DNA of 64,000 nt from a virus: positions 32,001-96,000 of the IMG/VR virus record IMGVR_UViG_3300043448_000837; one strand, written 5' to 3'. The notes beneath the pieces were generated by a model. That model was not told where the DNA came from, did not search any database, and saw only the letters and a list, made by a program, of their open reading frames with translations. Both the position numbers and the translations under genes were made by a program. Positions 39,442-58,111 of this stretch are shown piece after piece (the first letter of the stretch is position 1; every line of letters begins with the position of its first letter).

Positions 39442-39469
39442 AAAACTTGTGTTGAACTCCGAAAACAGT

Positions 39470-42846: not shown

Positions 42847-42904
42847 GTCGATTTATCTTGGGAAAATTTGTTGTTTCGAAGAACGGGGGGCCGAAGCCCC
42901 AGGC

Positions 42905-43738
42905 TCAGACCGCAGCGAGTTCGGTCAGCACGCGCATCGCACGCTGGTTGATGCGAGAACCTTGCCCAAAGTTGGCGTAGTTGAAGCGACCAGCGGCAGA
43001 CTTCCGCGAGTAGTTGGAAGCGTATTCGGTCACAGCGTTGAACGCATCGTAGAAGGTGCGACCTTCGTTACCGCGACCCGTGTAGAACAGGCCGTTCAGT
43101 TGGGTCACAAAGGAGTCACGCATGGTGTCAACATCTTTCTGGTAGATCGCCTCCAGAGCGTTACGGAACTGCGCCTGAGAGCAAGGCGTAACGGCCAGCT
43201 TATCCACGTACTCGGCGTATTTCTTCATCGCACCGTTGACGTAGTCAACCACAGCGGTGGATTCAAGCACACGCTCGTTCACACCAGCCTGGTGGCGGTA
43301 CTTCTCGCTCAGGTCAGAGTAGGCCATTGCGAAGGTGTTACCGCAGATGACGCGAGTGGCCGAAGGGCCGATTGCAACGCTGGCGTTACCAACGTGGCCG
43401 TTCAGAAGGGTGATGTAAGCCTTGTAGTTCTCGCCGATGACTTTGAACTCTTGGTTAACTTGGGCTTGGGCGAAGACCCGAGCACCGTTGTTCAGGTAAC
43501 CCATGTTCTCAACGGAGAGCAAACCTTCTTCAACCATGGGGTTGATCAGTTTCAGAAGGTCGCTGTTTTGAACCGTCTCGTAATTGGGGGACACGGAGCC
43601 AAGGCACTTACCGTTGTCATCGCGGACGACGGCAACCTTCTCGTCCCACTTGATGGGCTGACCGTCGTTCCCGGTGAAGAACAGGGGACGGTGAGACACG
43701 GTCCAGTCGAGGTTGTTGGTGACAGCAAAAGCAGGCAT
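42905..43738 (-). CDS. DUF932-family protein
   Basis: LDWTV, LGSVSPNYETVQN, NGH.G, RVICGNT, FNAVTEY; start MPAFAV. Confidence 0.8.
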   Translation of the reverse strand: MPAFAVTNNLDWTVSHRPLFFTGNDGQPIKWDEKVAVVRDDNGKCLGSVSPNYETVQNSDLLKLINPMVEEGLLSVENMGYLNNGARVFAQAQVNQEFKVIGENYKAYITLLNGHVGNASVAIGPSATRVICGNTFAMAYSDLSEKYRHQAGVNERVLESTAVVDYVNGAMKKYAEYVDKLAVTPCSQAQFRNALEAIYQKDVDTMRDSFVTQLNGLFYTGRGNEGRTFYDAFNAVTEYASNYSRKSAAGRFNYANFGQGSRINQRAMRVLTELAAV

Positions 43739-43769
43739 GTTGTTTTCGGAAGTTGTTTGAACTGTAAGT

Positions 43770-43836
43770 ATTATAGCGGGTTTTGGGACGGAAGTAAAGC
43801 GGGTAAACCGCCCCGGCAAGGTACGGTTAACCGCCC
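43770..43836 (-). repeat. Cassette/promoter repeat copy 16
   Basis: TTTACT-N17-TATAAT; abuts TGA at 43837. Confidence 0.88.
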
Positions 43837-44278
43837 TCAGCGCACGCAGTAGTCGCGCGAGCGAGTCCAGCCGATGGGGCAGGTTTCTCCACCATTGTAG
43901 AAAACTTGGGTGTTACCTTCAGGAACGCAGGCACCACCGGACGCAAACGTTCGGATTGGGCAGCTGCCAAATTTCTGCACAGGAATGCTCTGTGCCAGGA
44001 CAACTTGGCCGAAGATCACAGAGCTGAGGCAAAACAGAAACGGTTTCATTCTGAGAGATTCAGGTCGTTTACGAACAGAAAAGAAAGACCAGCGTCGCAA
44101 GCGTCCGCCATGAAAAGACCTTCGTGGCGAAGCAGTTCCGCATCAGCATGGTTTCCTTGTTTATAGAGGAACTCAACCTGATCAGCCATGTCTTCAAGAC
44201 GACTCGCAACGAGCGTCTGAAGTTCAATTCCGCGCATATTTTCGAATTCCTCGATGAAATAAGAGTGTTCGGTGTGGT

Positions 44279-44419
44279 TCACAGGTACTTGAGCTCCAGG
44301 GCTTGAATGATCGGCTCAATCTCACGAGCAGTGTAAGCAGTGGCGCTGTAAACACCGTCAACGTAAATGTCGTATCGGGGGCCGAGGTGGGTACGGCGAA
44401 CCTTGGTAGTGATCTTCAT
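44279..44419 (-). CDS. 46-aa protein (not in ORF track)
   Basis: MKITTKVRRTHLGPRYDIYVDG...; leaderless start. Confidence 0.65.
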   Translation of the reverse strand: MKITTKVRRTHLGPRYDIYVDGVYSATAYTAREIEPIIQALELKYL

Positions 44420-44425
44420 GTTATA

Positions 44426-44491
44426 ACTATAGCTGGTTTTGGCACGGGAGTAAAGGGGGTAAACCGCCCTGGCGTGGGCGGGTAACCGCCC
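44426..44491 (-). repeat. Cassette/promoter repeat copy 17
   Basis: TTTACT-N17-TATAGT; TGA at 44493. Confidence 0.88.
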
Positions 44492-45281
44492 CTCAGGCGT
44501 CCCCGAACTCTTTCTTCAGGCGTTCGTACTCCTGGCGACGACTGTTTCGAATGAACTCTTCTCTTTTGAGACGAGCGTTAAATTCCTCGTCATTTTCCTC
44601 CCTTTGCTTGGTTACCGTAAAGATTGCGGTAACGCAGTCGTAATATCCTCGCTCGGCTTCCAGTTCCACTTGCGTGAAACCTTGTTCCATCGCTTCCGTC
44701 AAATTTGCAATAGCTGTTTGGATGGAACAATAGTCGATGTCGAGTTGACGAGTCTCGGTAATTTGTTGACGTTTTTGTGCAGTCATTGTTTTGTAATTTT
44801 AGGTTTTAGTAAGGGCTTGTTTTTGAGCCTCGATCCAGCGGCTCTCAAAAAACTCTCTCATCGCGTCGCGAAAGGCGAGGATGGCTTCTTGCTGAGCTTT
44901 ACTGTGCAGAGAGTCTGCCAAGTAAGTCGCGTGGCGATGAACCAAGCTCTCGAAGTCTCTCGCCCCGGCTTCGTACGCCTTTGCGTAGAACTCTTTCAGG
45001 TCGGATGTCAGTGAATCGATGGCGTCAGTCATTGTTGTCCCAGTCAGCAACTGTGGTATAGGTTTCGATAAGAACAAGTGTTTGTCCTAACAATCTGTGG
45101 TTTTGATAGTCTGCAAACGCTTCTTCGCGAGTCGGATAACCATACGTGTTGAAGACATATTCACCCCAACTGGTTTGGGGGTCTAGCAGATGCCCCTCTT
45201 TAGAGAGAAGCTTCCAGCAGTAGCTGATTTCGACTTTTGTTTTCATTTTGCGGGGTTCATAAACAACAAGTGGCATTGTGA

Positions 45282-45995
45282 TCAAGCTCGAATTTCAACG
45301 AGTTCCTTCCGGTGGCAGTCCCAGAGGACCAGGGCAGGCGACTCTTCGCAGAACCACGACCGCTTGACCCCACCGCAACCGGCATCGAGCACCAAAGAAT
45401 TTTCGGTTGAACAAACCACGTGGTAGTGTCCGGCGACGCGCACCCAGGGCCGCTCGCTGGCGTGCTCCCACCAGAATACACGACCTTTCCCTTCTTTACT
45501 GTTCGGTCCGTACATCATCAGGCTCTTCGCCTTCTTCGGCACGTCAAATACCATGTGAAACAGCGGGTATTCAGGCACTTCGAGCCAGGAAGGGAAGTAT
45601 GCGTGTGAGCATCTGTACTCCTGGTTTGAATCATCGCGAAAACAGAAGCCGTAAGGCATCGTTTCCAGCCACTGGCCCACCTCCGACAGCGGAATCTCAG
45701 CCGCCGCGAAATCCTCAATCGTGCGAGCCAACTCAGGCGAAACGTGAACGTTATTTCCGCGAATGTATCGCTCCAGCTTGTCCTGGTGGTTGGAACGCAG
45801 AACAATCGCACCCAGTTCTTTCTGAGCTTGCTTCAGCAGCTGGTACACACCAGCGGAATCGCTGAAGTCGCAGCGGGAGTCAAACACATCGCCCAGAATT
45901 ACGGGAATCAGAGCGTTGGTTTGGCAGTATGCGAGCGCCTCCCACAGAGGGCGATACTGCGAGTGAATATCGCCGATCAGAGCGTAGCTACGCAT
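45282..45995 (-). CDS. Metallophosphoesterase (PNKP/Ap4A-hydrolase-like)
   Basis: Start MRSYALIGDIH; GDVFDSR, SNHQDKL, HAY, GHYH, LDAGC. Confidence 0.85.
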   Translation of the reverse strand: MRSYALIGDIHSQYRPLWEALAYCQTNALIPVILGDVFDSRCDFSDSAGVYQLLKQAQKELGAIVLRSNHQDKLERYIRGNNVHVSPELARTIEDFAAAEIPLSEVGQWLETMPYGFCFRDDSNQEYRCSHAYFPSWLEVPEYPLFHMVFDVPKKAKSLMMYGPNSKEGKGRVFWWEHASERPWVRVAGHYHVVCSTENSLVLDAGCGGVKRSWFCEESPALVLWDCHRKELVEIRA

Positions 45996-46213
45996 GTCTA
46001 GCCCACCTCCACTTCTTTGATCTTGTAGTAATCGTATTCTCTCAAGTCGCCATCGCAATCTACGAAAGAACCGTCTTTCAACGATTCCCCATAGTTCTTC
46101 GCATCTTCCTTATTCATGAAGACCGACACCGAGTATTCTACATCCTCACCCTCGTAGTCCATGCCACCGCAAACCACGTAAACCACCATCCCTTTCTTCA
46201 TTTCCATACCTTT

Positions 46214-46280
46214 AGTATAGCTCATCCTGCCGGTTTTCGAAAGGGGGGCAAACCGCCCTCCCAGGTACGGTTAACCGCCC
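46214..46280 (-). repeat. Cassette/promoter repeat copy 18
   Basis: TTTCGA..TATACT; abuts TGA at 46281. Confidence 0.9.
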
Positions 46281-47372
46281 TCACAGGCCCAGCAAGGCGT
46301 CCAGCTGCTTGGGCTTCATTTTCCCCACGAATTCCATGAAGTTCGCGTACTTGCCGGCACGAATGCCGAACATTGCACCGGAAACATTCGGGTGGTTTTC
46401 GAGGACAATGCCCGCAAATTCCTTCTGGGAGTAACCTTCGTACAGTCGCACGAAGCCCTCAACCATGAACCCGATATCGCCGATACGATCGCGCAAAGCG
46501 TTGAACTCTGCGGAATAGTCGGGGAAGTGCAGCAGGAACTCGTCCAGATCGTCGTTCAGGTACAGCTCGGAGAAGTCAGGATCCCCGTTACCGCGAACGC
46601 GATGCAACTGAACGTAAACGTCGGACTTGACCTTGATTCGGTTACCGTTCGCGTCGCAAACGATGAAGCCTTCGTGGTCGGCACCGCGAGCGTTGACTGC
46701 GTCAACGATGTTGTCAGCACCGAAATTGAAGGACTCAGCCACCCAGAATACGCGGGAGAAATCACCCAGCGGCAACTCTACGAAATCGTTCGCACGATCC
46801 CGCACTGCCAGCAGCCGTAACATCGGCTCGTCGTACTTCACAACGATCCGGTTCTCGGCAGCGCACAACTCAAACACGTAGCAGTAATTCGGGTTCAGAT
46901 CGAAAGCGTTATAGCGCATGTACCGGAAGGTATCCCAGAACAGCTCTTCAAACGACATACCGGAATCACCAACGCTGCCAGCACCGCCGACAGAACCGGA
47001 GGTAGAAACAACCCACTGCACACCGTTCCAGAACAGTTTAATCAGCGAGCCATCATACTTCTCGTATACGTTCGCGGAGGACCAATCAATCTCATCAGCT
47101 TCAGCTTCGCCCAGGTTGAAGAAACGGTCGAAAGCGTAAGCAACCAGGCGAAAGTACGGCGAATGATCACCGTCGTTATCCACTCGCTCTACGACGGCAC
47201 CACGGCAAGCACGTACGATCGGGTTACCCTTGTCGGTACCAATTACTCCGTACTTCAGGTTGAACAAACCAGGGAAACGGTCGTCCGTAGAAACGCGGAT
47301 GTCCAGGTCCGCCAGGGGACCCAGCCCATAGTCGTTCAGCCAGTTGATCAGGTTGTTTCGCAAGTTATCCAT
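46281..47372 (-). CDS. RNA ligase, T4 Rnl1-like
   Basis: CRG, RFFN, EKYDGSL, FEL..ENRIVV, EGFIV, KVKS; single-gene cassette. Confidence 0.9.
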   Translation of the reverse strand: MDNLRNNLINWLNDYGLGPLADLDIRVSTDDRFPGLFNLKYGVIGTDKGNPIVRACRGAVVERVDNDGDHSPYFRLVAYAFDRFFNLGEAEADEIDWSSANVYEKYDGSLIKLFWNGVQWVVSTSGSVGGAGSVGDSGMSFEELFWDTFRYMRYNAFDLNPNYCYVFELCAAENRIVVKYDEPMLRLLAVRDRANDFVELPLGDFSRVFWVAESFNFGADNIVDAVNARGADHEGFIVCDANGNRIKVKSDVYVQLHRVRGNGDPDFSELYLNDDLDEFLLHFPDYSAEFNALRDRIGDIGFMVEGFVRLYEGYSQKEFAGIVLENHPNVSGAMFGIRAGKYANFMEFVGKMKPKQLDALLGL

Positions 47373-47378
47373 GCTATA

Positions 47379-47444
47379 AGCATAGCGCTTTTTGGCCCAG
47401 GGGTAAAGGGGGTAAACCGCCCTCCCAGGTACGGTTAACCGTCC
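47379..47444 (-). repeat. Cassette/promoter repeat copy 19
   Basis: Supplies TAA stop (..DG*); ATG 6 nt after TATGCT. Confidence 0.9.
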
Positions 47445-47620
47445 ACTTTCTCTTTCTTGAGCTCTTCCAACGTTCTTTCAATTGAAACCAAACGATTTCC
47501 GATTTGCATCAAAAGGTCGGTTAAACCCTCGATCTCTTCGTGAATATCCTGATGGTGAAACCGCAAGGGTTTCTGAATAATTTTTCTGAGCTTTGCTTTT
47601 TTCATTTTACAGAAAAAACA

Positions 47621-47692
47621 TACTCCCAGCCAGATTTGAACTGACGACATCCCACTTGTAAGGAGGGCGCTCTACCGCTGAGCTATAGGAGC
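47621..47692 (-). tRNA. tRNA-Val(TAC)
   Basis: Loop CTTACAA. Confidence 0.88.
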
Positions 47693-47764
47693 TGGCGGCC
47701 CTTTTGTTGACGGAGTGAAGCCGAACTCCGAGGGTACTTGCAAGTTTGGACCTTACTTTCCCCG

Positions 47765-47839
47765 ATCCGCCGTGCGGGAATCGAACCCGCTATCGATCTC
47801 CCTTGTCGGGGTGTCATTGCCATTTAGACTACCGACGGA
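47765..47839 (-). ncRNA. Degenerate tRNA / tRNA-like element
   Basis: Acceptor stem and T-arm intact, anticodon arm irregular. Confidence 0.55.
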
Positions 47840-47934
47840 AGGAGCCGCTTACGGCGGCAAGTCGTCACACGGAAGGGGATTTACCACCTCGAAAGGGGGT
47901 GGAACCACCCCGGAAAGGGGTGGAAGCGACTAGC

Positions 47935-49431
47935 TCAGAAGGTGAACTTCGTTTGAATTACGCCACCAAAGTTAGACGAAGCGCCGGTGAACGCTTGGTT
48001 GTTGGTTACGTAGAAGACAGCGGGAGTGATCGAGATGTTGTCGCTCACACGGTACTTGTAGAAGGCTTCCCACATCAGAGCATCCTTGGAAAGACTTGCG
48101 GCATTTCCAGGTTGGCCGATAGCGAAACCAGCACCGTTGCCTTTCGCGAAGACGTCACTCCACTGAAGGCCAGCGTACCACGATTCAGCGTTGGTTGCAC
48201 CTGCAGGAGTGGTCTTGTTTTGAGCGGTCAGGCTCACAGTGTTCCAGCCGTAGCCAGCGCTCACAGAGGGCACGATTCCAGACTTGGAAGGTTGCCAGTA
48301 GGCGCTGATTGCGTAGCCGTTGGAAGTTTGACCGGGAGCAAGAACGCCAGAACCACCGTTCAGAGCGTTAAAAGTGCGAACCCGAGTTCCTTCCGTACCG
48401 TAGCGGTAACCGAACGCAACACCGTAATTAGAAGCACGGTAGCCAACTTGAGCCATCGTGTTCAGGGCGCCGGATTCGTTGAACTCACCCTTGGTGGAAT
48501 CGTTTCCATTCTGGGCAACGTAGTTCAGACCAGCCACGAAACCTTTCTTGCCGGGCTGCCTCCACTGGGCGCCGAAACCTGCACCGGTTGCCTTGTTGTA
48601 AACACCAGGCGCACCAGCAAGCTGGAAGAAGTCAAGGATTTCCGACTTGTACGCGGAAGGAATCCAGGCCATCTCCGTGTTACGAACCAGGGGGCCAGCG
48701 GTCAGGGTTAGACCCTTCGTGAAGGCGGGGAACTGGTAGTACAGGCGATCCAGTTTGACAGTGTCGGCGGTGCTTTCAGCCTTGTCCAGCTTGAACAGCG
48801 AGGAGCTTGATCCGAAAGGTTGAGCCGAGAAGTTACCGGAACGCAGGCGAGTGCGCAGCAGATCTTTGCCGGTGAACGACGTGTCGAAGTTCAGGCGAAG
48901 GTCGTAGTTGAAGGCGGTTTCCCCAACGTTCGTGCTGGGAGCGTTTTTGCCAACACCGGGAGTCTTGGCGCCATCAACTCCACCCAGAATGAAATTTGCT
49001 TCACCGCGAAGTTTGGTGGTGGTTGAGAACTGAGTTGCTTCCAGTTGACCAACCTTGGCTTCCAGCTTACTCACGCGACCGCGAATCACGGCCAGTTCAG
49101 CGGCGAACTCACGGGCAAGACGATTGAGTTCGTCCGTGACTTCAGTTACGCGATCCAGGCAGGCATTCAGCAGGGCGGCAGCTTCGTAACGGGTCATCGC
49201 TTGACCGCCACCGTAAGTTCCGTCCGGGTAACCTGCAACGCAACCGTAGTTTTCTACGAGTTTTTGCAGAGCACCGTACGCCCAGTCGGTAGGCTTGACG
49301 TCTGAGAATTGAGCAATGCTCGTCACTTGCTCGGAAGAGTATTGATTGACTGCGGCGATATTAAGATCAGCTGCAGATGCTACCAGCGGCGTCGTAACAA
49401 CAGCACCGGCAACAATAAAAGATTTGATCAT
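47935..49431 (-). CDS. Cyanobacterial SomA/SomB-type porin (SLH + OprB-like)
   Basis: Signal peptide; FSDVKPTDWAY..YGCVAGYPDG..TRYEAAA; QFSTTTKL; C-terminal FTF. Confidence 0.93.
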   Translation of the reverse strand: MIKSFIVAGAVVTTPLVASAADLNIAAVNQYSSEQVTSIAQFSDVKPTDWAYGALQKLVENYGCVAGYPDGTYGGGQAMTRYEAAALLNACLDRVTEVTDELNRLAREFAAELAVIRGRVSKLEAKVGQLEATQFSTTTKLRGEANFILGGVDGAKTPGVGKNAPSTNVGETAFNYDLRLNFDTSFTGKDLLRTRLRSGNFSAQPFGSSSSLFKLDKAESTADTVKLDRLYYQFPAFTKGLTLTAGPLVRNTEMAWIPSAYKSEILDFFQLAGAPGVYNKATGAGFGAQWRQPGKKGFVAGLNYVAQNGNDSTKGEFNESGALNTMAQVGYRASNYGVAFGYRYGTEGTRVRTFNALNGGSGVLAPGQTSNGYAISAYWQPSKSGIVPSVSAGYGWNTVSLTAQNKTTPAGATNAESWYAGLQWSDVFAKGNGAGFAIGQPGNAASLSKDALMWEAFYKYRVSDNISITPAVFYVTNNQAFTGASSNFGGVIQTKFTF

Positions 49432-49486
49432 GCTCTATATAGTTAGAGTGTTTTGTACAAAACCCCCGATTAGAGTGATCGGGGAA

Positions 49487-49558
49487 AGCGGAATACCGGG
49501 ATCGAACCGGTGACATCTTGCTTGGAAGGCGAGCGTTCTACCGCTGAACTAATTCCGC
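49487..49558 (-). tRNA. tRNA-Gly(TCC)
   Basis: Loop CTTCCAA. Confidence 0.9.
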
Positions 49559-49938
49559 GAATTTCTGTAAGTTCGAGTGGACTTACCTTTGTTTAAATTC
49601 CTAAAGTTAGGTGTGAGCGAATGGCAGTTTGGACACAGCAACTCAAGGTTGGACGGGTTGTTGTTTGTAGCGTCCCCATCGATGTGATTGATTTCTAGGG
49701 GAACGTTTCTGGTGACAGGGTGAACTTCACCCCACCCGCACCTTGGGCAACGGTTGTTGGCCTGCTCAAGTAAGAACCTCCGAATGTGATTTGATTGCTT
49801 AACCTGTGAGCCCAGGGTTATCTCACCGGATAACCACTTACGGATGGCCTCTTGATACTGATAATCTATCTGACAGCGGTTGCTGCAGTATTTGTTAGTT
49901 TTTCGGCGGCAGGTTGCCCCGCAAGTTAAGCAAGTCAT
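49549..49938 (-). CDS. HNH endonuclease between two tRNA genes
   Basis: Start MTCLTCG; LEINHIDG..NN..NLELLCPNCH. Confidence 0.88.
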   Translation of the reverse strand: MTCLTCGATCRRKTNKYCSNRCQIDYQYQEAIRKWLSGEITLGSQVKQSNHIRRFLLEQANNRCPRCGWGEVHPVTRNVPLEINHIDGDATNNNPSNLELLCPNCHSLTPNFRNLNKGKSTRTYRNSRN

Positions 49939-49947
49939 AATTGAAGG

Positions 49948-50019
49948 AGCCCCCGACATGATTTGAACACGCGACATCCTCATTACAAGTGAGGCGCTCT
50001 ACCACTGAGCTACAAGGGC
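49948..50019 (-). tRNA. tRNA-Thr(TGT)
   Basis: Loop CTTGTAA. Confidence 0.9.
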
Positions 50020-50071
50020 AGAAGAAAAGGTGCTTTCGCACCTAGCATAGTCACAAGCGAAGTTCGTAAAC

Positions 50072-50440
50072 TTAGGCTCGCGAGTAACACACGTTAATGT
50101 GGCCACGGCCAGGATTTGCCAGCGCCTGGAAAGCAGCGTAGGAGAGATCAAGGTCTCGCCCAGCCACGAATGGGCCACGATCGTTGATTCGCACGACGAC
50201 CGAACGGCCCCCGTGAGTTACTCGAAGTCGGGTTCCGAACGGAAGATTACGGTGTGCCGCTGTCAAGGCATAGGTGTTAAACCGTTCTCCGCTCGCTGTA
50301 GTTTGACCGTGATAACCGTCACCTACTCCATAATAGCTGGCGCCAGAGCATGACGAAGCTAGAGAAGGCGATGGAGCCAGGAAAGTCATTCCGGCAACGG
50401 CGGCCAAACCAAACAAACCCTTCAGTTTCGAAACAAGCAT
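50072..50440 (-). CDS. rlpA: RlpA-like (DPBB) lytic transglycosylase
   Basis: [31 protein letters not shown]. Confidence 0.9.
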
Positions 50441-50612
50441 TTAATTAGATAGAAATCAACATCCACCTCGCAAAGTGTGGGTCCGTGTTTCAACGGCACT
50501 TGTGGGTGGCTCTAGGAGTTTAAGGAATGACTGCATTCCCGAGTTGCTCCCCGCAGTGTATCGTGGGGCCGACCTCATAAATCGGTGTTAAAAGCAACGC
50601 CGCTATTATAAC

Positions 50613-50640
50613 GGAAAAAAGGGAGGCGTAAACCTCCCCG
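50613..50640 (-). terminator. Intrinsic terminator after tmRNA
   Basis: GGGAGG-TTTACG-CCTCCC-TTTTTT. Confidence 0.85.
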
Positions 50641-50825
50641 TTCGCTCAGAGTGTGTTGCTCAAACGGCAACAGCAGTCCTGCGGAATGAAACGATGTTGT
50701 TGAGATTTATTCTCACTTCACCCTGCACGGTCGATAACCAGTTTACCCCCGTGAAGTGGAGGTAAGGCGATTCGAACGCCTGTGTCGCACAGAGCGCCCC
50801 AGTTTATAGTCTTGTGAGAGGACTG
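50641..50825 (-). ncRNA. ssrA: Circularly permuted (two-piece) tmRNA
   Basis: T-arm and 3' acceptor strand precede GGGGGTA 5' strand; G3-U70 pair; tag (A)LNNIVSFRRTAVAV* at 50660-50704; outer ends approximate. Confidence 0.88.
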
Positions 50826-50828
50826 ATT

Positions 50829-51329
50829 TCAGCGTAATTTTCTACCTTTACGGTAATTTTCTGGGATAGGGTCACCTACCCTTATCTTCAAGTTTTTCTC
50901 CCCATTGGTAACCCACATAGTGCCGAATTGAGAATTTCTCTCCCCTTGTTGGTGTTTCATTTCAGCAAGAGTTTTTCGTCTCTTAGCTTTAGCCTCAGGA
51001 GATAGGGCAGCTTTTACGGCTAGAAGTCTATTCTTGCGTAGATTATTTAGCTGGTTCGATCTGTATTCTTCGTCGTTTTTCCACAGGAACGAAGTTCTCT
51101 CCCACATCTTCTCTAAGCCGCCGCTATTTCGAGCAAGTTGGTTAATAATTTCTTCTTTTCCAATTTCTCCTACCAATCCCTTCCACGCAATAAAATCACG
51201 TTTGTCTCCCCATAGTTGCCAGTTGCAGTAATGAAACATTGCATGTTGAGTTACCGAGACCTCGACTAGGTTTGAAAGATCATCGGTTCCCCCTTTATAC
51301 TTCGGCAGAATGTGATGTTTGTGGGTCAT
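50829..51329 (-). CDS. HNH homing endonuclease
   Basis: HKHHILPKYKGG..NLV..HAMFH; NSQFGTMWVTNG. Confidence 0.85.
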   Translation of the reverse strand: MTHKHHILPKYKGGTDDLSNLVEVSVTQHAMFHYCNWQLWGDKRDFIAWKGLVGEIGKEEIINQLARNSGGLEKMWERTSFLWKNDEEYRSNQLNNLRKNRLLAVKAALSPEAKAKRRKTLAEMKHQQGERNSQFGTMWVTNGEKNLKIRVGDPIPENYRKGRKLR

Positions 51330-51412
51330 TGTAATCGGTAATCCGATTACTTTTACCCCAACGCTAGAATCGAACCTCTATTGAAACGGAGTTGTTACCA
51401 CCCGAAGGTAGA

Positions 51413-51484
51413 TTGGCGATACTGGACTTGAACCAGTGACTTCTTCCGTGTCAAGGAAGTACTCTACCTCTGAGTTAATCGCCC
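51413..51484 (-). tRNA. tRNA-Val(GAC)
   Basis: Loop TTGACAC. Confidence 0.88.
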
Positions 51485-51574
51485 TGGCGGAAGATACTGG
51501 ATTCGAACCAGTGGTGCCGTTACCGACACAACGGTTTAGCAAACCGTCGCCTTAAACCACTCGGCCAATCTTCC
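51485..51574 (-). tRNA. tRNA-Ser(GCT)
   Basis: Loop TTGCTAA, CCA encoded. Confidence 0.92.
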
Positions 51575-51578
51575 AAGG

Positions 51579-51652
51579 TGCCCCCTGTAGGATTCGAACC
51601 TACGACTTCCTGGTTCGAAGCCAGGCGCTCTACTCCACTGAGCTAAGAGGGC
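51579..51652 (-). tRNA. tRNA-Arg(TCG)
   Basis: Loop CTTCGAA. Confidence 0.9.
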
Positions 51653-51655
51653 GAA

Positions 51656-51729
51656 TGAGAGATGGTGGATTTGAACCACCGACCATAGGCATATGAGACC
51701 CGTACTCTGCCAGACTGAGCTAATCTCTC
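51656..51729 (-). tRNA. tRNA-Met or Ile2 (CAT)
   Basis: Loop CTCATAT. Confidence 0.82.
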
Positions 51730-51747
51730 AAATTCCCTTTCGGGAAA

Positions 51748-51828
51748 TGCCCCCAGTCGGACTTGAACCGACAAACCTTTCGGCGGCTGATTTTGAATCA
51801 GCTGTGTTTACCATTTCACCACAAGGGC
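51748..51828 (-). tRNA. tRNA-Leu(CAA)
   Basis: Loop TTCAAAA. Confidence 0.9.
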
Positions 51829-51832
51829 AAGG

Positions 51833-51905
51833 CACCCTCGGCAGGATTTGAACCTGCGACTAACCGCTTAGAAGGCGGATGCTCTAGCCACTGAGCTACG
51901 AGGGC
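51833..51905 (-). tRNA. tRNA-Arg(TCT)
   Basis: Loop CTTCTAA. Confidence 0.9.
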
Positions 51906-51908
51906 AAA

Positions 51909-51982
51909 CGCTCTCTGTAGGATTCGAACCTACGACCTTCTGATCCGTAGTCAGACGCTCTAATCCGCTGAGCTAAGAGAGC
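51909..51982 (-). tRNA. tRNA-Arg(ACG)
   Basis: Loop CTACGGA. Confidence 0.92.
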
Positions 51983-51983
51983 A

Positions 51984-52057
51984 TGGCACCGAAACAAGGA
52001 CTTGAACCTTGGATAACAGTTTTGGAGACTGTCGTGTTACCACTACACTATTTCGGT
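51984..52057 (-). tRNA. tRNA-Trp(CCA)
   Basis: Loop CTCCAAA, CCA encoded. Confidence 0.9.
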
Positions 52058-52077
52058 AAAGTTGCCCGTCAGGGCAA

Positions 52078-52151
52078 TGTCCGTGAGAGGACTCGAACCT
52101 CCAACAACTACCACCTCAAAGTAGCGCGTCTGCCAATTGCGCCACACGGAC
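52078..52151 (-). tRNA. tRNA-Leu(GAG) with short variable loop
   Basis: Loop TTGAGGT. Confidence 0.82.
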
Positions 52152-52153
52152 AT

Positions 52154-52228
52154 TGGTTCTGGAGCTAGGACTCGAACCCAGGAATGGCGGGACCAAAACC
52201 CGCTGCCTTACCACTTGGCTACTCCAGA
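52154..52228 (-). tRNA. tRNA-Gln(TTG)
   Basis: Loop TTTTGGT, CCA encoded. Confidence 0.9.
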
Positions 52229-52247
52229 TTACTTGGCACGAGGCCAA

Positions 52248-52319
52248 AGTTTCGGGTCGGAATCGAACCGACGCATGAAGGTTTTGCAGACCTTCGCCTT
52301 ACCACTTGGCTACCGAAAC
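52248..52319 (-). tRNA. tRNA-Cys(GCA)
   Basis: Loop CTGCAAA. Confidence 0.9.
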
Positions 52320-52321
52320 GG

Positions 52322-52394
52322 GGTGGTCGATGAGATTTGAACTCACATGAACCAGATCCACAATCTGGCGCATTAACCATTATGCTACGACCAC
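52322..52394 (-). tRNA. tRNA-His(GTG)
   Basis: Loop TTGTGGA. Confidence 0.9.
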
Positions 52395-52396
52395 AG

Positions 52397-52481
52397 CGGA
52401 GAGGGTGGGATTCGAACCCACGGAGGCTTTCACCTCGCTAGTTTTCAAGACTAGAGCCATCAACCACTCGACCACCTCTCC
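52397..52481 (-). tRNA. tRNA-Ser(TGA)
   Basis: Loop CTTGAAA. Confidence 0.92.
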
Positions 52482-52485
52482 AAGG

Positions 52486-52557
52486 AGCGGATGAAGGGAT
52501 TTGAACCCTCGACTTTCTCCTTGGCAAGGAGATGCTCTACCACTGAGCTACATCCGC
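52486..52557 (-). tRNA. tRNA-Gly(GCC)
   Basis: Loop TTGCCAA. Confidence 0.92.
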
Positions 52558-52577
52558 GAACGTTCCCGAAGGAACGA

Positions 52578-52650
52578 TGGAGAATAGGAGACTCGAACTC
52601 CTGACATCCTGCTTGCAAAGCAGGCGCTCTACCAGCTGAGCTAATTCCCC
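52578..52650 (-). tRNA. tRNA-Ala(TGC)
   Basis: Loop TTTGCAA, G3-U70. Confidence 0.93.
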
Positions 52651-52855
52651 GAGCAGGGCGAGAGTATCTGCCTACGATTAACGACTTGCGTAAAGATTAG
52701 AACTGAGTCACGCAACTTGGTCGCCTAACCCAGACTTTGCTTTGTCGCAGTACCGTTACTTTACGATGCAGCTTACGGGACTCTTCATTTAATGCAACAT
52801 TCCTCGTTGCACCCTCTTTGGCCTCCTTCCTGGCTATCTGCCAGACGAGTACCAA
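52651..52855 (-). ncRNA. ~200-nt structured RNA, manA RNA candidate
   Basis: Non-coding inter-tRNA segment with helices; resemblance to cyanophage manA RNA is from recall. Confidence 0.5.
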
Positions 52856-52927
52856 AGCCATCACTGAGGCTTGAACTCAGGACCTCCATCTTACCAAGAT
52901 GGCGCACTACCACTGTGCTATGACGGC
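52856..52927 (-). tRNA. tRNA-Thr(GGT)
   Basis: Loop TTGGTAA. Confidence 0.9.
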
Positions 52928-52931
52928 GAAG

Positions 52932-53013
52932 TGGGAAAGACTGGATTTGAACCAGTGTAGGCAGAGCCAAAGGTTTTACAGACCTCCTCCTTTAACCACT
53001 CGGACACTTTCCC
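52932..53013 (-). tRNA. tRNA-Tyr(GTA)
   Basis: Loop CTGTAAA. Confidence 0.92.
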
Positions 53014-53267
53014 AAAATCCCCTTGCGGGGGGATTTGACGGTCTCTGCAGAGTAGATTGTCAGTTCAATACCTTCAATCACCGTCGTCCGCCCAGTTACC
53101 AGCTGGGCGGTGTAGCATTCAGTAACCCATGAGAATGCCAGCGGGGACCACTCGTATCAGGTCATTAGCCTCCCTTTTGCCTCAGGAGCTCGGCGCACGG
53201 CATACTCTCCGTACTGGAGTCGCACTTTTTGGTCAAGGCAGCAAAACTCCTTGTTGCCCGAAGGCAA

Positions 53268-53341
<74 letters not shown>

Positions 53342-53344
53342 TGA

Positions 53345-54232
53345 TGGCCCCATTTAACACGTGAAACGCTTCAAGAACGCACAGAGGTGGGGGCTCGTGG
53401 CTTCCAGCAGGGCTCGCATATTGGCCGGTAAGAGTGTTTCATCCAGCAGCACCAACGGCAAGACAGCCCTCAAGGAAGCACCACACATTAACGACTGTAT
53501 GAGTGGCCGTGTCGGGAACTTAACGACGTATTCCATACGACTCCGGTGTCTAGAACGGAGGGGTTGGTAGGAGGGGCGGCCTCCTGAGTGCGTCACCGCC
53601 CGCTTTTGCGTCACCCAGCCAGTGACCGGGGAGAGGCATTGCACTTCCTACGTTTGCCGGTTTTCAACCGGCCCCTGGAATGAAATCCAGGATGCTTCGT
53701 TCTCCCTTGAGCGATCCGAAGAACGCGGGACGGTGATTGCAGACCGCAGCCCGATGCTATGCCCGGACATTTCCGGACCACGCAGAGCGGGAACGCGAAC
53801 CAGCGAACTGGCCGCACCACACCGACAGAGCAGTGTGGGTGGTTGGTGAGGCAGGTGTCTCTACGCTGTACTTCCACAAGTGTCTACGCTATACGTTACA
53901 CAAGTGTCACGAACAGTTCAACTCCTTTTGCTTTCCTTACCTCGGCAGGGTGCCGCTACCTCCCTTGTTGCGGCGTGTTTGTACGTTTCGTTCATCCAGG
54001 TACGTTACTAGACCTAGGACACTTTTTCTTTTCCCGCATCAAGTCGTCAGTGTCGTTAACGCTTGAGCATGGAATGGGAGTTCACCCATTCGTAACTTAT
54101 TTGGGAGCCTGAACTATGACTCTTACAGGCAGTTTGGCATTTTTCTCGCTCCCGGACTACGCAAACTGCCAAATGGCATCCGGGCACAAGCCTACTCCCC
54201 CCTCGTCTAGTAGGCATCGCATGGACGAGGGA
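53345..54232 (-). ncRNA. Large (~890 nt) structured non-coding RNA candidate
   Basis: No credible ORF; serial pseudoknots and hairpins; lies between tRNA-Asn and tRNA-Pro. Confidence 0.65.
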
Positions 54233-54233
54233 A

Positions 54234-54305
54234 CTGGCCCGGCAGGGATCGAACCTGCGACAACTTGATTAACAGTCAAGCGTTCTACCGCTGAACTACA
54301 GGCCA
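54234..54305 (-). tRNA. tRNA-Asn(GTT)
   Basis: Loop CTGTTAA. Confidence 0.92.
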
Positions 54306-54346
54306 TTGTGGGAGTGTCTTTAGGGCGCATCTCATTCCCAAAAGCG

Positions 54347-54488
54347 TACCGAGTGATGGAATCGAACTATCACCGTTCTTTCAGTGAGTTACCATCTCAC
54401 CTAGGTTTCCGCAGCATTCATCTGACGACTGGTTAAGTCAACAAATCAAATGCTCGTCCACCTGAACTACCTACCCTTAGAACTCGGC
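54347..54488 (-). ncRNA. tRNA-like RNA (acceptor + T arm, expanded core)
   Basis: GCCGAG/CTCGGT stem and TTCGATT T-loop enclosing ~110 nt. Confidence 0.55.
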
Positions 54489-54514
54489 TTATGCTGAAGT
54501 TTGCCTTACGGCAA

Positions 54515-54588
54515 TGGCGGAGGCAGGATTCGAACCTGCGACCTCCAGGTTATGAGCCTGGCGAGCTACCGGACTGCTCTACTCCACG
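54515..54588 (-). tRNA. Initiator tRNA-fMet(CAT)
   Basis: C1xC72 mismatch, A11-U24, loop CTCATAA. Confidence 0.88.
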
Positions 54589-54702
54589 ATTCAACCCCCA
54601 GTTGTAACAAGCGTTGCCAGCTGGACGCACTTGAAACCGGATTTTACAACGCTAATGGCCCCAGGGGCGGTGACCGGCGTTGTGCCCACCAAAATGGGCA
54701 AA

Positions 54703-54776
54703 TGGGAACTGACGGATTTGAACCATCGACACCACGGGCTTCAACCGTGTGCTCTACCAAGCTGAGCTAAGTCCCC
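54703..54776 (-). tRNA. tRNA-Phe(GAA)
   Basis: Loop TTGAAGC. Confidence 0.9.
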
Positions 54777-54780
54777 GAGG

Positions 54781-54852
54781 TGGAACCGACAAGACTTGAA
54801 CTTGTGACCGCTCGGTTATCAGCCGAGTGCTCTACCACTGAGCTACGGTTCC
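54781..54852 (-). tRNA. tRNA-Ile(GAT)
   Basis: Loop CTGATAA. Confidence 0.92.
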
Positions 54853-55027
54853 ATGATTGGGCGGGATTGCTGCTAACTGTTACTTTCACTGACGGAAAGA
54901 ACTCCCAGCAGTCCCTAACAGTTTTAGTCTTGTTTAGGACTCCCATGCGGGCAGCTCACTTTCGTATCACTCTTGCAGAACCAAGAGGTATCAGATGAGC
55001 GGTGCAGTTTTGTGTCATGCCGGACAA

Positions 55028-55099
55028 CGACCCTAACGGGATTTGAACCCGTGATACTACCGTGACAGGGTAGCGTGATCACCGCTTCACTATAGGGTC
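55028..55099 (-). tRNA. tRNA-Asp(GTC)
   Basis: Loop CTGTCAC. Confidence 0.92.
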
Positions 55100-55121
55100 A
55101 AGACGAGGTTTGTAACCTCTA

Positions 55122-55193
55122 TGGGTCGTCTGAGATTCGAACTCAGGGCCAATCGGTTAAAAGCCGAGTGCTCTACCGCTGAGCTAACGACCC
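55122..55193 (-). tRNA. tRNA-Lys(TTT)
   Basis: Loop CTTTTAA. Confidence 0.92.
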
Positions 55194-55594
55194 GTGGATC
55201 TCTGGCTGGGATGGTACCGCCGTCATTAACCTCCTACCCAGAGGTTACCAGAGATGTTGTTCGCTTTCGTGGGCCTGAGAACGGATTGGTTACCGCCAGG
55301 TGTACCTTTCTCGTGCGGCGCTGAAACGGATTGGTTACCGCCAACTTACCGCCTCTTGTCTTTCCGAAGGAAAGTATCAGGCGAATGGACTCTTGGCTGG
55401 GGCGATGCGTCCGTCATTAACCAGCTGTTCACTGATTACCAAGAGGCGGGCGTCCCTAGTCCCCGCGATTTGCCAGAACTGATGAAGTGGCCGGAGACCG
55501 AAGTCATAACCCACCTCTCGTTTCGAGTGCGTTTTAGCTCTTAAACTACGCTACTGAAGTAGCGGTGGGTCTGACACCACACGTTTCACTCTAA

Positions 55595-55666
55595 TAGTCC
55601 CAACGGGATTCGAACCCGTGCTACAACCTTGAAAGGGTTGTGACCTAACCGCTAGTCGATAGGACC
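55595..55666 (-). tRNA. tRNA-Glu(TTC)
   Basis: Loop CTTTCAA. Confidence 0.92.
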
Positions 55667-55755
55667 ATTTGAAAACCTTTGGCTCAGTTCATGCCGTGCG
55701 ATTTACCCTGGACCGCATATCCAGGCACCAAAGGTTTTTGGTAATTTCTATTGAG

Positions 55756-55767
55756 TTTTCAAGTTTC
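55756..55767 (-). promoter_or_regulatory. boxA-like antitermination site (variant)
   Basis: GAAACTTGAAAA about 40 nt downstream of the promoter. Confidence 0.6.
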
Positions 55768-55806
55768 GTGTGACCTTGGAGAAGAACCTCTTTCAACCAC
55801 CCTTTT

Positions 55807-55872
55807 ATCATAGCGCCTTTTGCGCCAGAAGTAAAGGGGTGGAAACCGCCCAGAGAGGGCGGGAAACCGTCC
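55807..55872 (-). repeat. Cassette/promoter repeat copy 20 (tRNA operon promoter)
   Basis: TTTACT-N17-TATGAT. Confidence 0.85.
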
Positions 55873-55929
55873 TAGTGACTGAAGCGTCGGCAGCGCCGAC
55901 CTGGTCACGCACGGAGGTGGGTTTTTCAC

Positions 55930-55958
55930 TTTTCAAGGTTCGGGGCGAGGCTTTCCTC
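55930..55958 (-). promoter_or_regulatory. boxB-like hairpin + boxA
   Basis: GAGG-AAAG-CCTC then GAACCTTGAAAA. Confidence 0.7.
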
Positions 55959-55970
55959 AACCACCCTTTA

Positions 55971-56036
55971 ACTATAGCGCCTTTTGCGCCAGAAGTAAAG
56001 GGGTGGAAACCGTACCGAGGGTACGGGAAACCGCCC
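55971..56036 (-). repeat. Cassette/promoter repeat copy 21
   Basis: TTTACT-N17-TATAGT. Confidence 0.85.
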
Positions 56037-56038
56037 TA

Positions 56039-56119
56039 TGCCCTCCGGGAGACTCGAACTCCCACGCACAAGGCACTGGTACCTAAAACCAGGGCGTCTA
56101 CCAATTCCGCCAGGAGGGC
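56039..56119 (-). tRNA. tRNA-Leu(TAG)
   Basis: Loop TTTAGGT. Confidence 0.92.
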
Positions 56120-56133
56120 AAATAAGACTGGAA

Positions 56134-56219
56134 TGGAATGAACGGGAATCGAACCCGTCACTGAAGAGTTCCTTCTGGAGGTTTTTCTCTCCGAGCACCG
56201 CCGAGGCACCCCACGTTCC
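56134..56219 (-). ncRNA. Atypical tRNA-like RNA
   Basis: Perfect T-arm, 7-bp D-like stem, A-rich 8-nt loop in anticodon position. Confidence 0.55.
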
Positions 56220-56230
56220 AGTCTATCGAA

Positions 56231-56259
56231 TTTTCAAGGTTCGGGGCGAGGCTTTCCTC
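56231..56259 (-). promoter_or_regulatory. boxB-like hairpin + boxA
   Basis: Identical to 55930-55958. Confidence 0.7.
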
Positions 56260-56271
56260 AACCACCCTTTA

Positions 56272-56334
56272 ACTATAGCGCCTTTTGCGCCAGAAGTAAA
56301 GGGGTGGAAACCGCCCAGAGAGGGCGGTAACCCG
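56272..56334 (-). repeat. Cassette/promoter repeat copy 22
   Basis: TTTACT-N17-TATAGT. Confidence 0.85.
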
Positions 56335-56420
56335 GTGGTTGTGTCCGGGTCCACACAAGAGAATCCCCGGACCGGTGACCCGCCAGCCGTAAAGCCGACG
56401 GAGCACCCAACCACCCTTTA

Positions 56421-56485
56421 ACTATAACCCGTTTAGGGGCTCGAGTAAAGGGGGCAAACCGGCCTTTTCAGGCGGTTAACCGCCC
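56421..56485 (-). repeat. Cassette/promoter repeat copy 23
   Basis: GGGCGGTTAACCG..TTTACT-N17-TATAGT. Confidence 0.85.
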
Positions 56486-56603
56486 TTTCGTCGCTCTTGC
56501 TCGTAAATATACTGCAGTCCAAGCATTGGAACAACAATTACACCAAACCCGCAGAGTCCGAGCCAAATGGGACTGTCGGCAAGTGTGCGTACGAGGTGAA
56601 GCA

Positions 56604-56858
56604 TTAGGCTCCCTGGAAGTATTCAAGCGTTGGCCACTTATCCTCGATCCATATCATGGTTTTCACGATATCTGCGCGAGCTTTCATCTTTGTAGGTGCG
56701 ATTCCGTTGTGCATGTGAGTTCCCCATGGTCCTCCATCTTCCCAAACAAGACACCAGTGCCACTCTTGTTTTCCTTCGCACCACCACACCTCTGCCGAGC
56801 AGTTTCGACTGTCAAGGCGAACGGTGGTCACATGTCTGTTTCCAGAACCGGTAATCAC
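56604..56858 (-). CDS. Hypothetical protein
   Basis: Coupled ORF. Confidence 0.6.
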   Translation of the reverse strand: MITGSGNRHVTTVRLDSRNCSAEVWWCEGKQEWHWCLVWEDGGPWGTHMHNGIAPTKMKARADIVKTMIWIEDKWPTLEYFQGA

Positions 56859-56864
56859 AGATCG

Positions 56865-57080
56865 TCAATCCGATACTTCGACTGAAGTAGCAGGTCGAGC
56901 TCCGTCTTCAACCTTTCGGAAGACGATTTGCTTGTGAACGGCATAAATTTCGAGAGTGTCTCCTTCACCCCAGCCGAGGGCATCAAGGAGCTCGTCAGGA
57001 AACGGAAAAACGAGGTTACCTTCGTCATCTTCTTCAAGGGTGATCGTGAATGAGTCGGGATCTGTGTTAAACCCAGGCAT
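56865..57080 (-). CDS. AbrB/MazE-like DNA-binding protein
   Basis: GNLVFPFPDELLDALGWGEGDTLEI. Confidence 0.75.
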   Translation of the reverse strand: MPGFNTDPDSFTITLEEDDEGNLVFPFPDELLDALGWGEGDTLEIYAVHKQIVFRKVEDGARPATSVEVSD

Positions 57081-57470
57081 TGTTCTCTGAAATGATGATT
57101 GTTTTCGTAGGGTTCACAATGAGAATGTCGTTTCGCATTGTGTGCATCCTTTCTCGATTTCTCGACGAAGTTGGAAGCTCTTGTAGTAGAAGTTTAGTTC
57201 CATTGGGATCAACCTCGTACATTTGCAAGATCCCTGGGGGGAACGAACGCGGCGGAATCACTTGGGACCTCTGTAATCGTTAGCCATTTGGACTCCAAAT
57301 CCTCGCCGTTTTCGTGAAGGGAACGAACTGCTCGTCCGATGGTGCAGAACACTTTCCCCCTCTCCCCCCAGGCGCACCCGGTCCAGAATTTTCCGGACAC
57401 GTTTTCAACCAGGAACATTTCGAGTTAAGTCGCACTGAGCTCAGCATAGGTGCCGAGCTGGCGGGTAAAC

Positions 57471-57908
57471 TCAGTGACCTGCGAAAGCTTGGAGTAGATA
57501 CAAATCGCTCAGAATTGATTCTGCCATCGCCTGCATGTGACTACCGATTCCAACGAGCCGGGGGTCTTGACTGTTTTCTTCGCAGAACTTGTAAAAAATA
57601 CCAACGGCGCTATTAAGAGCCATAAGGTAATCAAGATTAAGCTCCACCAGGGACTGCGCATCAAAAAACTCCATAGAGATTCCTGGACCTGAAAACAGAC
57701 TGAAATCCGGGTCAAACCCACATGCGCGAAGGGTTTCAACAAGGCCGTCCATCAGTTCTCCGAGATCGTTATAGATTCTCTCGAAAAGAAGGTGGGCCTC
57801 ATAGAAGTTCGGACCCCGTACATTCCAATGCGAAAGACGGGCAACGATTATGGCGTCGTTCAGGTATTTTACCGATTTGTTGGAGTAGACCGTAAATTCT
57901 TCGTTCAT
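57471..57908 (-). CDS. dps: Dps/ferritin-like protein
   Basis: HWNVRGPNFYEAHLLFERIY; start taken at MNEEFT. Confidence 0.8.
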   Translation of the reverse strand: MNEEFTVYSNKSVKYLNDAIIVARLSHWNVRGPNFYEAHLLFERIYNDLGELMDGLVETLRACGFDPDFSLFSGPGISMEFFDAQSLVELNLDYLMALNSAVGIFYKFCEENSQDPRLVGIGSHMQAMAESILSDLYLLQAFAGH

Positions 57909-58111
57909 GTTAGGGTTCCTCACTTGTTTATGATCGGTGGCTATGTTCAGGGTCACGATCAGGTTTTACCCTTTTCCGACACTCTTTGACATGCTCTGCC
58001 AACTCTTTCAGGTCGCAAATTAAAGAACCACTTTCTTCGTTGCATCCGATCACGAGGCCGCAAAGCGGGCACCGAAACTTGGATTTTATGTAATTATCTT
58101 CGAGTTTCATT

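Follow-up and report, generated by a model that had tools for sequence, protein, structure and literature searches.

Processive antitermination through boxA is textbook knowledge for the ribosomal RNA (rRNA; rrn) operons of Escherichia coli and for lambdoid phages. A related case is put of phage HK022, a promoter-proximal structured leader RNA that acts on the polymerase directly, without a phage protein and without boxA. To our knowledge, almost nothing is known about boxA antitermination in cyanobacteria, whose boxA is perfectly conserved even though Rho is missing. Nus/boxA control extends beyond rRNA, as shown for boxA elements ahead of suhB and rpsJ, and is predictable from a conserved leader boxA (Baniulyte et al. 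2017, PMC5725501). The literature yielded no report that connects cyanophages or phage transfer RNA (tRNA) operons with an rrn-type boxA. Here, we describe such a case in a stretch of 64,000 nucleotides (nt), hereafter called the window, which comprises bases 32001 to 96000 of the 114,040-bp IMG/VR virus record IMGVR_UViG_3300043448_000837 (50.6% G+C). Analysis of positions 55756 to 56485 of the window revealed four tandem promoters heading an operon of 30 tRNAs on the minus strand, and three of these promoters are followed by a copy of the cyanobacterial rrn boxA. We interpret these sequences as the control segment of a stable-RNA operon in a cyanophage. Judged from the sequence, it is reasonably probable that the rrn-type boxA works and would load host NusB/S10 onto the polymerase transcribing about 5 kb of tRNA and noncoding RNA.

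The promoters are located in a 74-nt repeat that occurs four times on the minus strand (A, 56408-56481; B, 56259-56332; C, 55958-56031; D, 55794-55867). Each repeat consists of a GC-rich hairpin, TTTCC, the -35 hexamer TTTACT, a 17-nt spacer, the -10 hexamer TATAGT, which is TATGAT in D, and finally (T/A)AAAGGGTGGTTG. The pattern TTTACT-N17-TATAGT-TAAAGGG gave 4 matches compared to 0.00 expected from shuffled sequences, and a generic promoter scan flagged all four copies as sigma-70-like. The preliminary description of this DNA had reported four repeat-promoters within 700 bp that share a leader start, and both the coordinates and the promoters withstood the repeat, pattern, and scan analyses. 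Its statement that all four have an rrn-type leader held for three only; promoter A drives an 82-nt RNA. On this strand, 21 cassette-like sites were detected, 17 of which precede protein genes, and an ATG is positioned exactly 7 nt past the -10 hexamer in 13 of these 17. The 13 exact +7 ATGs are a signature of leaderless messenger RNAs (mRNAs) that would fix the transcription start; by analogy with them, the starts at A to D are predicted at the G of GTGGTTG. Leaderless mRNAs appear to express much of the phage gene set (cassettes at 14731-47379 and genome-wide, minus strand). The promoters and leaders, in the direction of transcription, are the following.

56421-56449, minus strand: promoter A, -35 TTTACT, 17 nt, -10 TATAGT, predicted start 56414 (pattern and promoter scans)
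56333-56414, minus strand: leader A, no boxA; structured RNA of 82 nt closed by the stem GUGGUUG/CAACCAC and containing two hairpins (predicted fold)
56272-56300, minus strand: promoter B, predicted start 56265 (pattern and promoter scans, cassette analogy)
56244-56263, minus strand: boxB-like hairpin of leader B, GG.UGAGG-AAAG-CCUCG.CC (predicted fold)
56231-56242, minus strand: boxA of leader B, exact GAACCTTGAAAA, then TTCGATAG (motif scan; unpaired in the centroid fold)
55971-55999, minus strand: promoter C, predicted start 55964 (pattern and promoter scans)
55943-55962, minus strand: boxB-like hairpin of leader C, same as that of leader B (predicted fold)
55930-55941, minus strand: boxA of leader C, exact GAACCTTGAAAA (motif scan)
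55807-55835, minus strand: promoter D, -10 TATGAT, predicted start 55800 (pattern and promoter scans, cassette analogy)
55779-55790, minus strand: hairpin of leader D, GAGG-UUCU-UCUC (predicted fold)
55756-55767, minus strand: boxA variant of leader D, GAAACTTGAAAA, then CTCAATAG (motif scan)

In leaders B and C, the -10 hexamer is followed by the GGGTGGTTGAGG hairpin (GAGG-AAAG-CCTC), GCCCC, and GAACCTTGAAAA, with trailing TTCGATAG in B. These two identical leaders were found at exactly the sites reported earlier, and their hairpin folds, with a stem that extends to GG.UGAGG/CCUCG.CC. The third leader likewise has the reported variant GAAACTTGAAAA, an 11/12 match to boxA that is unchanged in near relatives. 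The box occupies +24 to +35 from the predicted start in B and C and +34 to +45 in D. It starts 29 to 39 nt past the -10 hexamers, on the sense strand, in the 5' leader of the tRNA unit of about 5.2 kb. Allowing 1 mismatch at most, GAACCTTGAAAA has 4 matches in the window compared to 0.71 expected (0/100 shuffles reached 4), and the exact 12-mer is confined to leaders B and C within the 114-kb record. Only B, C, and D among the 21 cassette sites have a boxA with 0 or 1 mismatch within 160 nt. The other sites show 2 to 5 mismatches, and the few near-matches after protein-gene cassettes overlap the start codon. The motif had been said to be absent from the protein-gene copies of the cassette, and indeed, within 160 nt, 0/17 show it at 0 or 1 mismatch. 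The box is therefore specific to the promoters of the RNA operon. In the predicted folds of seven leader variants, the box is unpaired or almost so, and a hairpin or domain ends 1 to 11 nt 5' of it; in the longer fold of D, the 3' half of the box is paired instead. The individual leader hairpins are no more stable than those of shuffled sequences, and the hairpin of the relative G271 is weak.

The published boxA of the cyanobacterial internal transcribed spacer (ITS) is GAACCTTGAAAA, followed by D4 CTGCATA (PMC8461337). This agrees with the earlier assignment of the 12-mer behind a boxB hairpin to the cyanobacterial rrn boxA, and the same 12-mer was seen in both ITS regions and leaders of rrn operons. 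In the ITS of Trichodesmium, G056, G126, and G128, a boxB hairpin is followed after 2 to 3 nt by GAACCTTGAAAA and then by CTGCATAG or CTAAATAG; the ITS boxA is GAACCTTGACAA in G196 and G106 and GCACCTTGAAAA in G120. In Trichodesmium, G056, G126, and G211, the rrn leader contains TTGACA-N17-TAnnTT, a GCGC.GGT(T)GAGAG hairpin, GAACCT(T/A)GA(A/C)AA, and NNNNATAGTTT. The leader of G211 has exact GAACCTTGAAAA, and that of G126 deviates in having GATGAGG and no ATAG. The order of elements in rrn leaders is hairpin, (GC)GCCCC, GAACCT(T/A)GA(A/C)AA, and NNNNATAG. In a 121-genome sample of the phylum, many leader matches read ...GCGCCCC-GAACCTAGA(C/A)AA; small low-GC genomes chosen from the sample had chance matches outside rrn and were set aside. 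Comparison of the phage leaders with cyanobacterial rrn leaders and ITS regions revealed matches in the box and in flanking elements: besides the box itself, phage and rrn leaders have in common GGTTGAG at the 5' side, GCCCC as the spacer, and ATAG behind the box (within TTCGATAG in B and CTCAATAG in D). Most of the variation in the phage box falls at positions that differ among host boxA copies as well (2, 7, and 10). The template of the copy would lie in the promoter-proximal leader of rrn operons no less than in the ITS. Mimicry of an rRNA operon leader, as originally proposed, is favored by all sequence-level tests run, and the likeness extends past the box to GGTTGAG, GCCCC, and ATAG.

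Relatives of the phage were gathered by pattern scans (cassette; -10 plus leader start) of IMG/VR and metagenomes. Eleven distinct leader variants from relatives at about 70 to 98% identity were compared, with flanks of 14 nt on each side of the box. The box is 0.89 identical pairwise, compared to 0.38 and 0.42 for the flanks, and 7/12 of its positions are invariant. This result shows retention of the box, and not of its flanks, in diverged relatives. Contigs at 95 to 98% identity carry three or four units. G267-type relatives have a single promoter unit, G271 and L384 have two in tandem, L002, L003, and L375 have three, and L001 has four, as does the phage described here; the unit gained or lost is the one with a tRNA-like RNA and tRNA-Leu(tag). 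In G271 (about 80% identical), a first promoter leads to the unit A RNA and a second one to GTGGTTGGGTCAGTCCGCCTC-GCACCTTGAAAA, 12 nt before tRNA-Lys. G267 (about 70% identical, rearranged) has one promoter at the same place after a Dps-like gene. This promoter leads into the unit A RNA homologue, and exact GAACCTTGAAAA comes directly behind that RNA, with the tRNAs about 580 nt downstream. L364 and L377 have exact boxes after different hairpins, and further lineages have the variants GTACCTTGAAAA, TAACCTTGAAAA, GAACCTCGATAA, and GCACCTCGAAAA. The structure 5' of the box is freely replaced; at its smallest it is a 5-bp hairpin, and at its largest a domain of 85 nt that contains two hairpins and shows compensatory changes. 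The reading frame of the box differs between lineages, so no peptide explains it; a leaderless peptide from the GTG at +7 was rejected on account of these differing frames.

The 82-nt RNA of leader A has a fold of -46 kcal/mol (z = -4.5) and is kept in G271 and G267, with 5 pairs changed on both sides across three lineages. Members of this family are 82 to 85 nt long (window 56333-56414, minus strand; L317:1631-1713, minus strand; L300:5040-5123, plus strand). In G267-type relatives the unit A RNA stands directly 5' of boxA and resembles an enlarged boxB. Neither the leaders nor the unit A RNA nor the tRNA-like RNA had a credible Rfam match, even at a permissive threshold. A Dps/ferritin-like protein gene (57471-57956, minus strand) is positioned upstream of the promoters and has the same place relative to promoter and boxA in G267 (L300:3879-4322). 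A 21-nt sequence, TATAGTTAAAGGGTGGTTGAG, which comprises the -10 hexamer and the leader start, is common to the phage and to T4-like Synechococcus myovirus contigs (L334:4228-4248, minus strand; L335:4035-4055, plus strand; L371; L374; L381). In these contigs it is located directly before tRNA-Arg and continues into a different leader (GAGACCACTGCGGTGACCCCC...). This start of tRNA-operon leaders is therefore common across cyanophage families.

The minus strand carries all genes around the promoters, 32 tRNA genes across 39193-56120 among them. The further features of the operon are listed below.

56310-56328, minus strand: cassette hairpin ACCGCCC-TCTCT-GGGCGGT, then TTCC, 5' of promoter B (read from sequence)
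56133-56220, minus strand: tRNA-like RNA, 88 nt, long variable arm, anticodon loop of 8 nt (cloverleaf in the predicted fold)
56038-56120, minus strand: tRNA-Leu(tag) (tRNA gene call)
56010-56026, minus strand: cassette hairpin CCGTACC-CTC-GGTACGG, then TTTCC, 5' of promoter C (read from sequence)
55845-55863, minus strand: cassette hairpin CCCGCCC-TCTCT-GGGCGG, then TTTCC, 5' of promoter D (read from sequence)
51413-55667, minus strand: operon body, 26 tRNA genes with structured spacers (tRNA gene calls)
50620-50639, minus strand: first canonical terminator-like hairpin downstream of the promoters (terminator scan)

The unit length of about 5.2 kb follows from the position of the first canonical terminator downstream, at 50620-50639. 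The preliminary description had given about 5 kb of untranslated RNA; the length stands, and the wholly untranslated nature does not, given the homing-endonuclease open reading frame (ORF) at 50829-51329 within the unit. Unit C consists of a promoter, a hairpin, and boxA plus about 60 nt ending in a hairpin, and contains no gene. Compared to the copies at 56310-56328 and 55845-55863, the cassette hairpin at 56010-56026 shows compensatory changes. The terminator scan made no call on the cassette hairpins, and their T-runs are too short for canonical intrinsic terminators; the hairpin at 56310-56328 is possibly a weak terminator or an insulator. The tRNA-like RNA, which sits between the boxA of leader B and tRNA-Leu(tag), has an acceptor stem and a T arm. 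It was matched by ARAGORN at a relaxed threshold only, with the four-base anticodon aaaa, and neither default ARAGORN nor Rfam made a call. The near relative L001 has this RNA, whereas L002 and L003 lack it. Possible identities are a tRNA in decay, a tRNA that reads quadruplets, and a decoy tRNA.

The phage is assigned to the cyanophages from psbA, a porin with SLH and OprB domains, and virion protein similarities; the nearest matches of its tail-fibre and virion proteins are Synechococcus myoviruses. The record is about 51% complete (CheckV). The porin (498 amino acids, 47935-49431, minus strand) is of the cyanobacterial outer-membrane type and lies within the tRNA region. It is 46 to 51% identical to four porins of the 2.7-Mb cyanobacterial genome G196 and 36 to 43% identical to those of Trichodesmium and G056. 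The psbA gene, outside the window, is split in two with about 800 nt between the parts (genome positions 99966-100637 and 101443-101655, minus strand); an intron or an inserted endonuclease would give the same layout. A megablast search with 50000-58000 against sequenced phages matched single tRNA genes only, and a distant search with 40000-47900 revealed no related phage isolate. The sequence GAACCTTGAAAACT is present near contig ends, presumably rrn, of many Planococcaceae and Bacillaceae genomes (L019, L024, L035, L051, L056, L073, and others). Because the same 14-mer occurs at these rrn-like ends, the boxA motif alone is no proof of a cyanobacterial host.

In the proposed mechanism, the sigma-70-type cassettes A to D would fire toward an array that spans about 5.2 kb and consists of tRNAs together with small structured RNAs. 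Transcripts B, C, and D would open with an imitation of an rrn leader, with a hairpin from about +3, a C-rich spacer, and the single-stranded boxA GAACCUUGAAAA. Host NusB-S10 would bind the boxA of the nascent transcript and, together with NusA, NusG, and perhaps SuhB, would convert the polymerase to an rRNA-type elongation complex. Such a complex could elongate faster and with resistance to pausing through highly structured RNA. It could read through the GC-rich, short-U-run cassette hairpins at 56310-56328, 56010-56026, and 55845-55863, so that the outputs of the promoters add up, and it could help with cotranscriptional folding and processing of the tRNAs by chaperoning, as proposed for rRNA. 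NusB-family matches were obtained in 5/5 cyanobacterial genomes tested, which may not include the phage's own host, and in the Synechococcus elongatus control. S10 is presumed to be universal. A search of the phage fragment, which covers about half a genome, revealed no encoded NusB or NusG.

Several observations weigh against this mechanism. Rho is absent from cyanobacteria (PMC13613805), so the textbook reason for antiterminating untranslated RNA is not directly applicable, and the benefit would probably be speed, hairpin read-through, or RNA folding. The terminator scan found no canonical intrinsic terminator between the promoters and 50639, which leaves the target of antitermination unclear. 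The two exact boxA copies derive from one 104-nt duplication and are not independent. The longer fold of leader D predicts pairing between the box's 3' half (UUGAAAACU) and GGUUUUCAA/AGGUUUUCAA just before tRNA-Glu (55668-55767), which suggests that the box might have a different or additional role there; this helix encloses a spacer of about 80 nt with two hairpins and is no more stable than shuffled sequences (z = -1.07). The box is also missing from L378, in which a tRNA is joined to the leader, and from the T4-like contigs L334, L335, L371, L374, and L381. Six T4-like cyanophage isolates were checked for boxA (S-SRM01, S-CRM01, S-RSM4, S-CREM1, S-H9-1, and RB11-B): an intergenic boxA-like match is absent in 5/6, and none (0/6) has one beside tRNA genes. 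The exact matches in the isolates fall within long open frames or on the strand opposite such frames, one variant, GCACC, is in unrelated intergenic DNA and far from tRNAs, and S-SRM01 and RB11-B have no match. Finally, the genomes with the closest porins have the ITS boxA GAACCTTGA(A/C)AA but a weaker leader box (GAACCTGGACAA in G196).

The box could instead be an RNA-processing signal, for example, an RNase E-type site, or a helix strand that brackets spacers, and would then trim the leaders of tRNA precursors with no Nus role. The position of the box 12 nt before the 5' end of tRNA-Lys in G271 and L384 and, in leader B, 10 nt before the tRNA-like RNA is consistent with this explanation, as is the possible pairing of its 3' half in leader D with GGUUUUCAA before tRNA-Glu. 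However, the leader D helix is not significantly stable, and the box of leader C has no tRNA behind it. Conservation spans GAACC in addition to the A/U part and follows the rrn boxA letter for letter, and the flanking GCCCC and ATAG match rrn leaders too. We consider processing unlikely as the role of the box.

Alternatively, abundant short boxA RNAs made by strong tandem promoters might serve as decoys that soak up host NusB-S10 and thereby lower host rRNA synthesis, instead of or besides an action on the phage's own polymerase. Unit C, which is without a gene, and the presence of three boxA copies in 500 nt could be read in this way, but nothing indicates that transcription of unit C terminates, and relatives have a single box directly before tRNAs. 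A phage that brings 30 tRNAs and psbA also needs host ribosomes, and a decoy function appears quite improbable. It is very improbable that the box is a functionless relic, that is, a piece of a host rrn leader or ITS captured with tRNAs or a promoter and spread by tandem duplication. The cyanobacterial ITS has tRNA-Ile and tRNA-Ala near boxB-boxA, the two exact copies amount to one duplication, and the unit number ranges from 1 to 4 among relatives, all of which would fit a relic. Against this stand the identity of 0.89 in the box versus about 0.4 in the flanks across lineages down to about 70% genome identity, the position of the box always past a promoter and never past the phage tRNA-Ala, and its differing reading frames. 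We give almost no weight to a DNA operator just downstream of the start, for which the box is not palindromic and its distance from the start (+24 to +85) is awkward, or to short leaderless peptides, for which a GTG does stand where leaderless cassettes have ATG and opens frames of 12, 13, and 35 codons but the box reads G-AAC-CTT-GAA here versus GAA-CCT-TGA in G267 and G271 and no peptide is conserved. Against all of these alternatives weigh the full match to the rrn boxA, GAACC included, the likeness of its flanks, the way it is conserved, and its shifting frames.

A scan of IMG/VR for boxA plus NNNNATAG gave at least 117 contigs. Among the matches listed, 11 contigs akin to S-SRM01, a freshwater Synechococcus myovirus (L178, L147, L152, L173, L185, L193, L197, L208, L230, L232, and L255) have promoter-like hexamers, GAACCTTGAAAA, (C/T/A/G)NNAATAG, and a small ORF. 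A podovirus-like group (L195, L210, L213, and L234) shows TAGAAT, a GGAGGGA/TCCTCC hairpin, the box, CTGCATAG, and then protein genes, and in L254 and L223, contigs of very different G+C, the box lies directly past TATAAT. Cyanophages might generally use the exact rRNA boxA of the host without a phage N-type protein, a strategy so far undescribed; this generalization is tentative and rather doubtful. Under it, boxA may lead into the tRNA operon in the lineage described here and, in S-SRM01-like and podovirus-like contigs, a promoter, an optional hairpin, boxA, and NNNNATAG may lead into protein genes. If this were true, the Rho-free hosts would imply that phages exploit a Rho-independent role of Nus factors (speed, hairpin read-through, or RNA chaperoning) or, alternatively, that phages titrate Nus factors away from host rRNA synthesis. 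Outside the window, AAACCTTGAAAA is followed by GAGTGCTGAGCCC at genome positions 98461-98472 (minus strand), about 660 nt downstream of another cassette, and this element is kept in the 80% relative G271 at 34870 (minus strand).

Retention, under selection, of an rrn-leader copy ahead of a 30-tRNA operon is natural evidence that the signal is of use to long structured RNAs in these hosts. It would also add a layer to how tRNA-rich phages secure a high tRNA output. The element, of about 45 nt, is portable and suited for testing what a cyanobacterial boxA does, and a promoter followed by the host rrn boxA can serve as a search image for candidate Nus-dependent units in uncultured phages.

Comparison with lambdoid nut sites revealed one point in common, the use of a host boxA in a promoter-proximal leader, which here too would alter the elongating polymerase. 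In nut sites, boxA precedes boxB, whereas in this lineage the hairpin precedes the box in every variant, as in rrn, and the predicted folds show no hairpin following the box within the spacers of leaders B and C. Furthermore, the box is the host rrn consensus instead of a weakened variant, and the operon encodes RNA. No N-like protein turned up in the record, which covers about half a genome and in which no search aimed at N was made. The boxA elements of suhB and rpsJ differ in that they control cellular protein genes, where boxA mainly represses or autoregulates, and cyanobacteria and phage tRNA operons are outside the scope of that work (PMC5725501). The closest resemblance is to the rrn antitermination signal, with the same 12-mer, a hairpin and then the box within the first tens of nucleotides, tandem promoters, similar GGTTGAG, GCCCC, and ATAG flanks, and a long, structured, mostly untranslated stable-RNA transcript. 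Unlike rrn operons, the unit is viral and heads tRNAs and small RNAs and not rRNA, has no leader-trailer helix around a 16S rRNA, and has a hairpin shorter than the boxB hairpins of the rrn ITS regions examined. Nus control beyond rRNA was known before in cellular genes (suhB) and in lambdoid phages with N; an rrn-type boxA on a cyanophage tRNA operon appears to be new.

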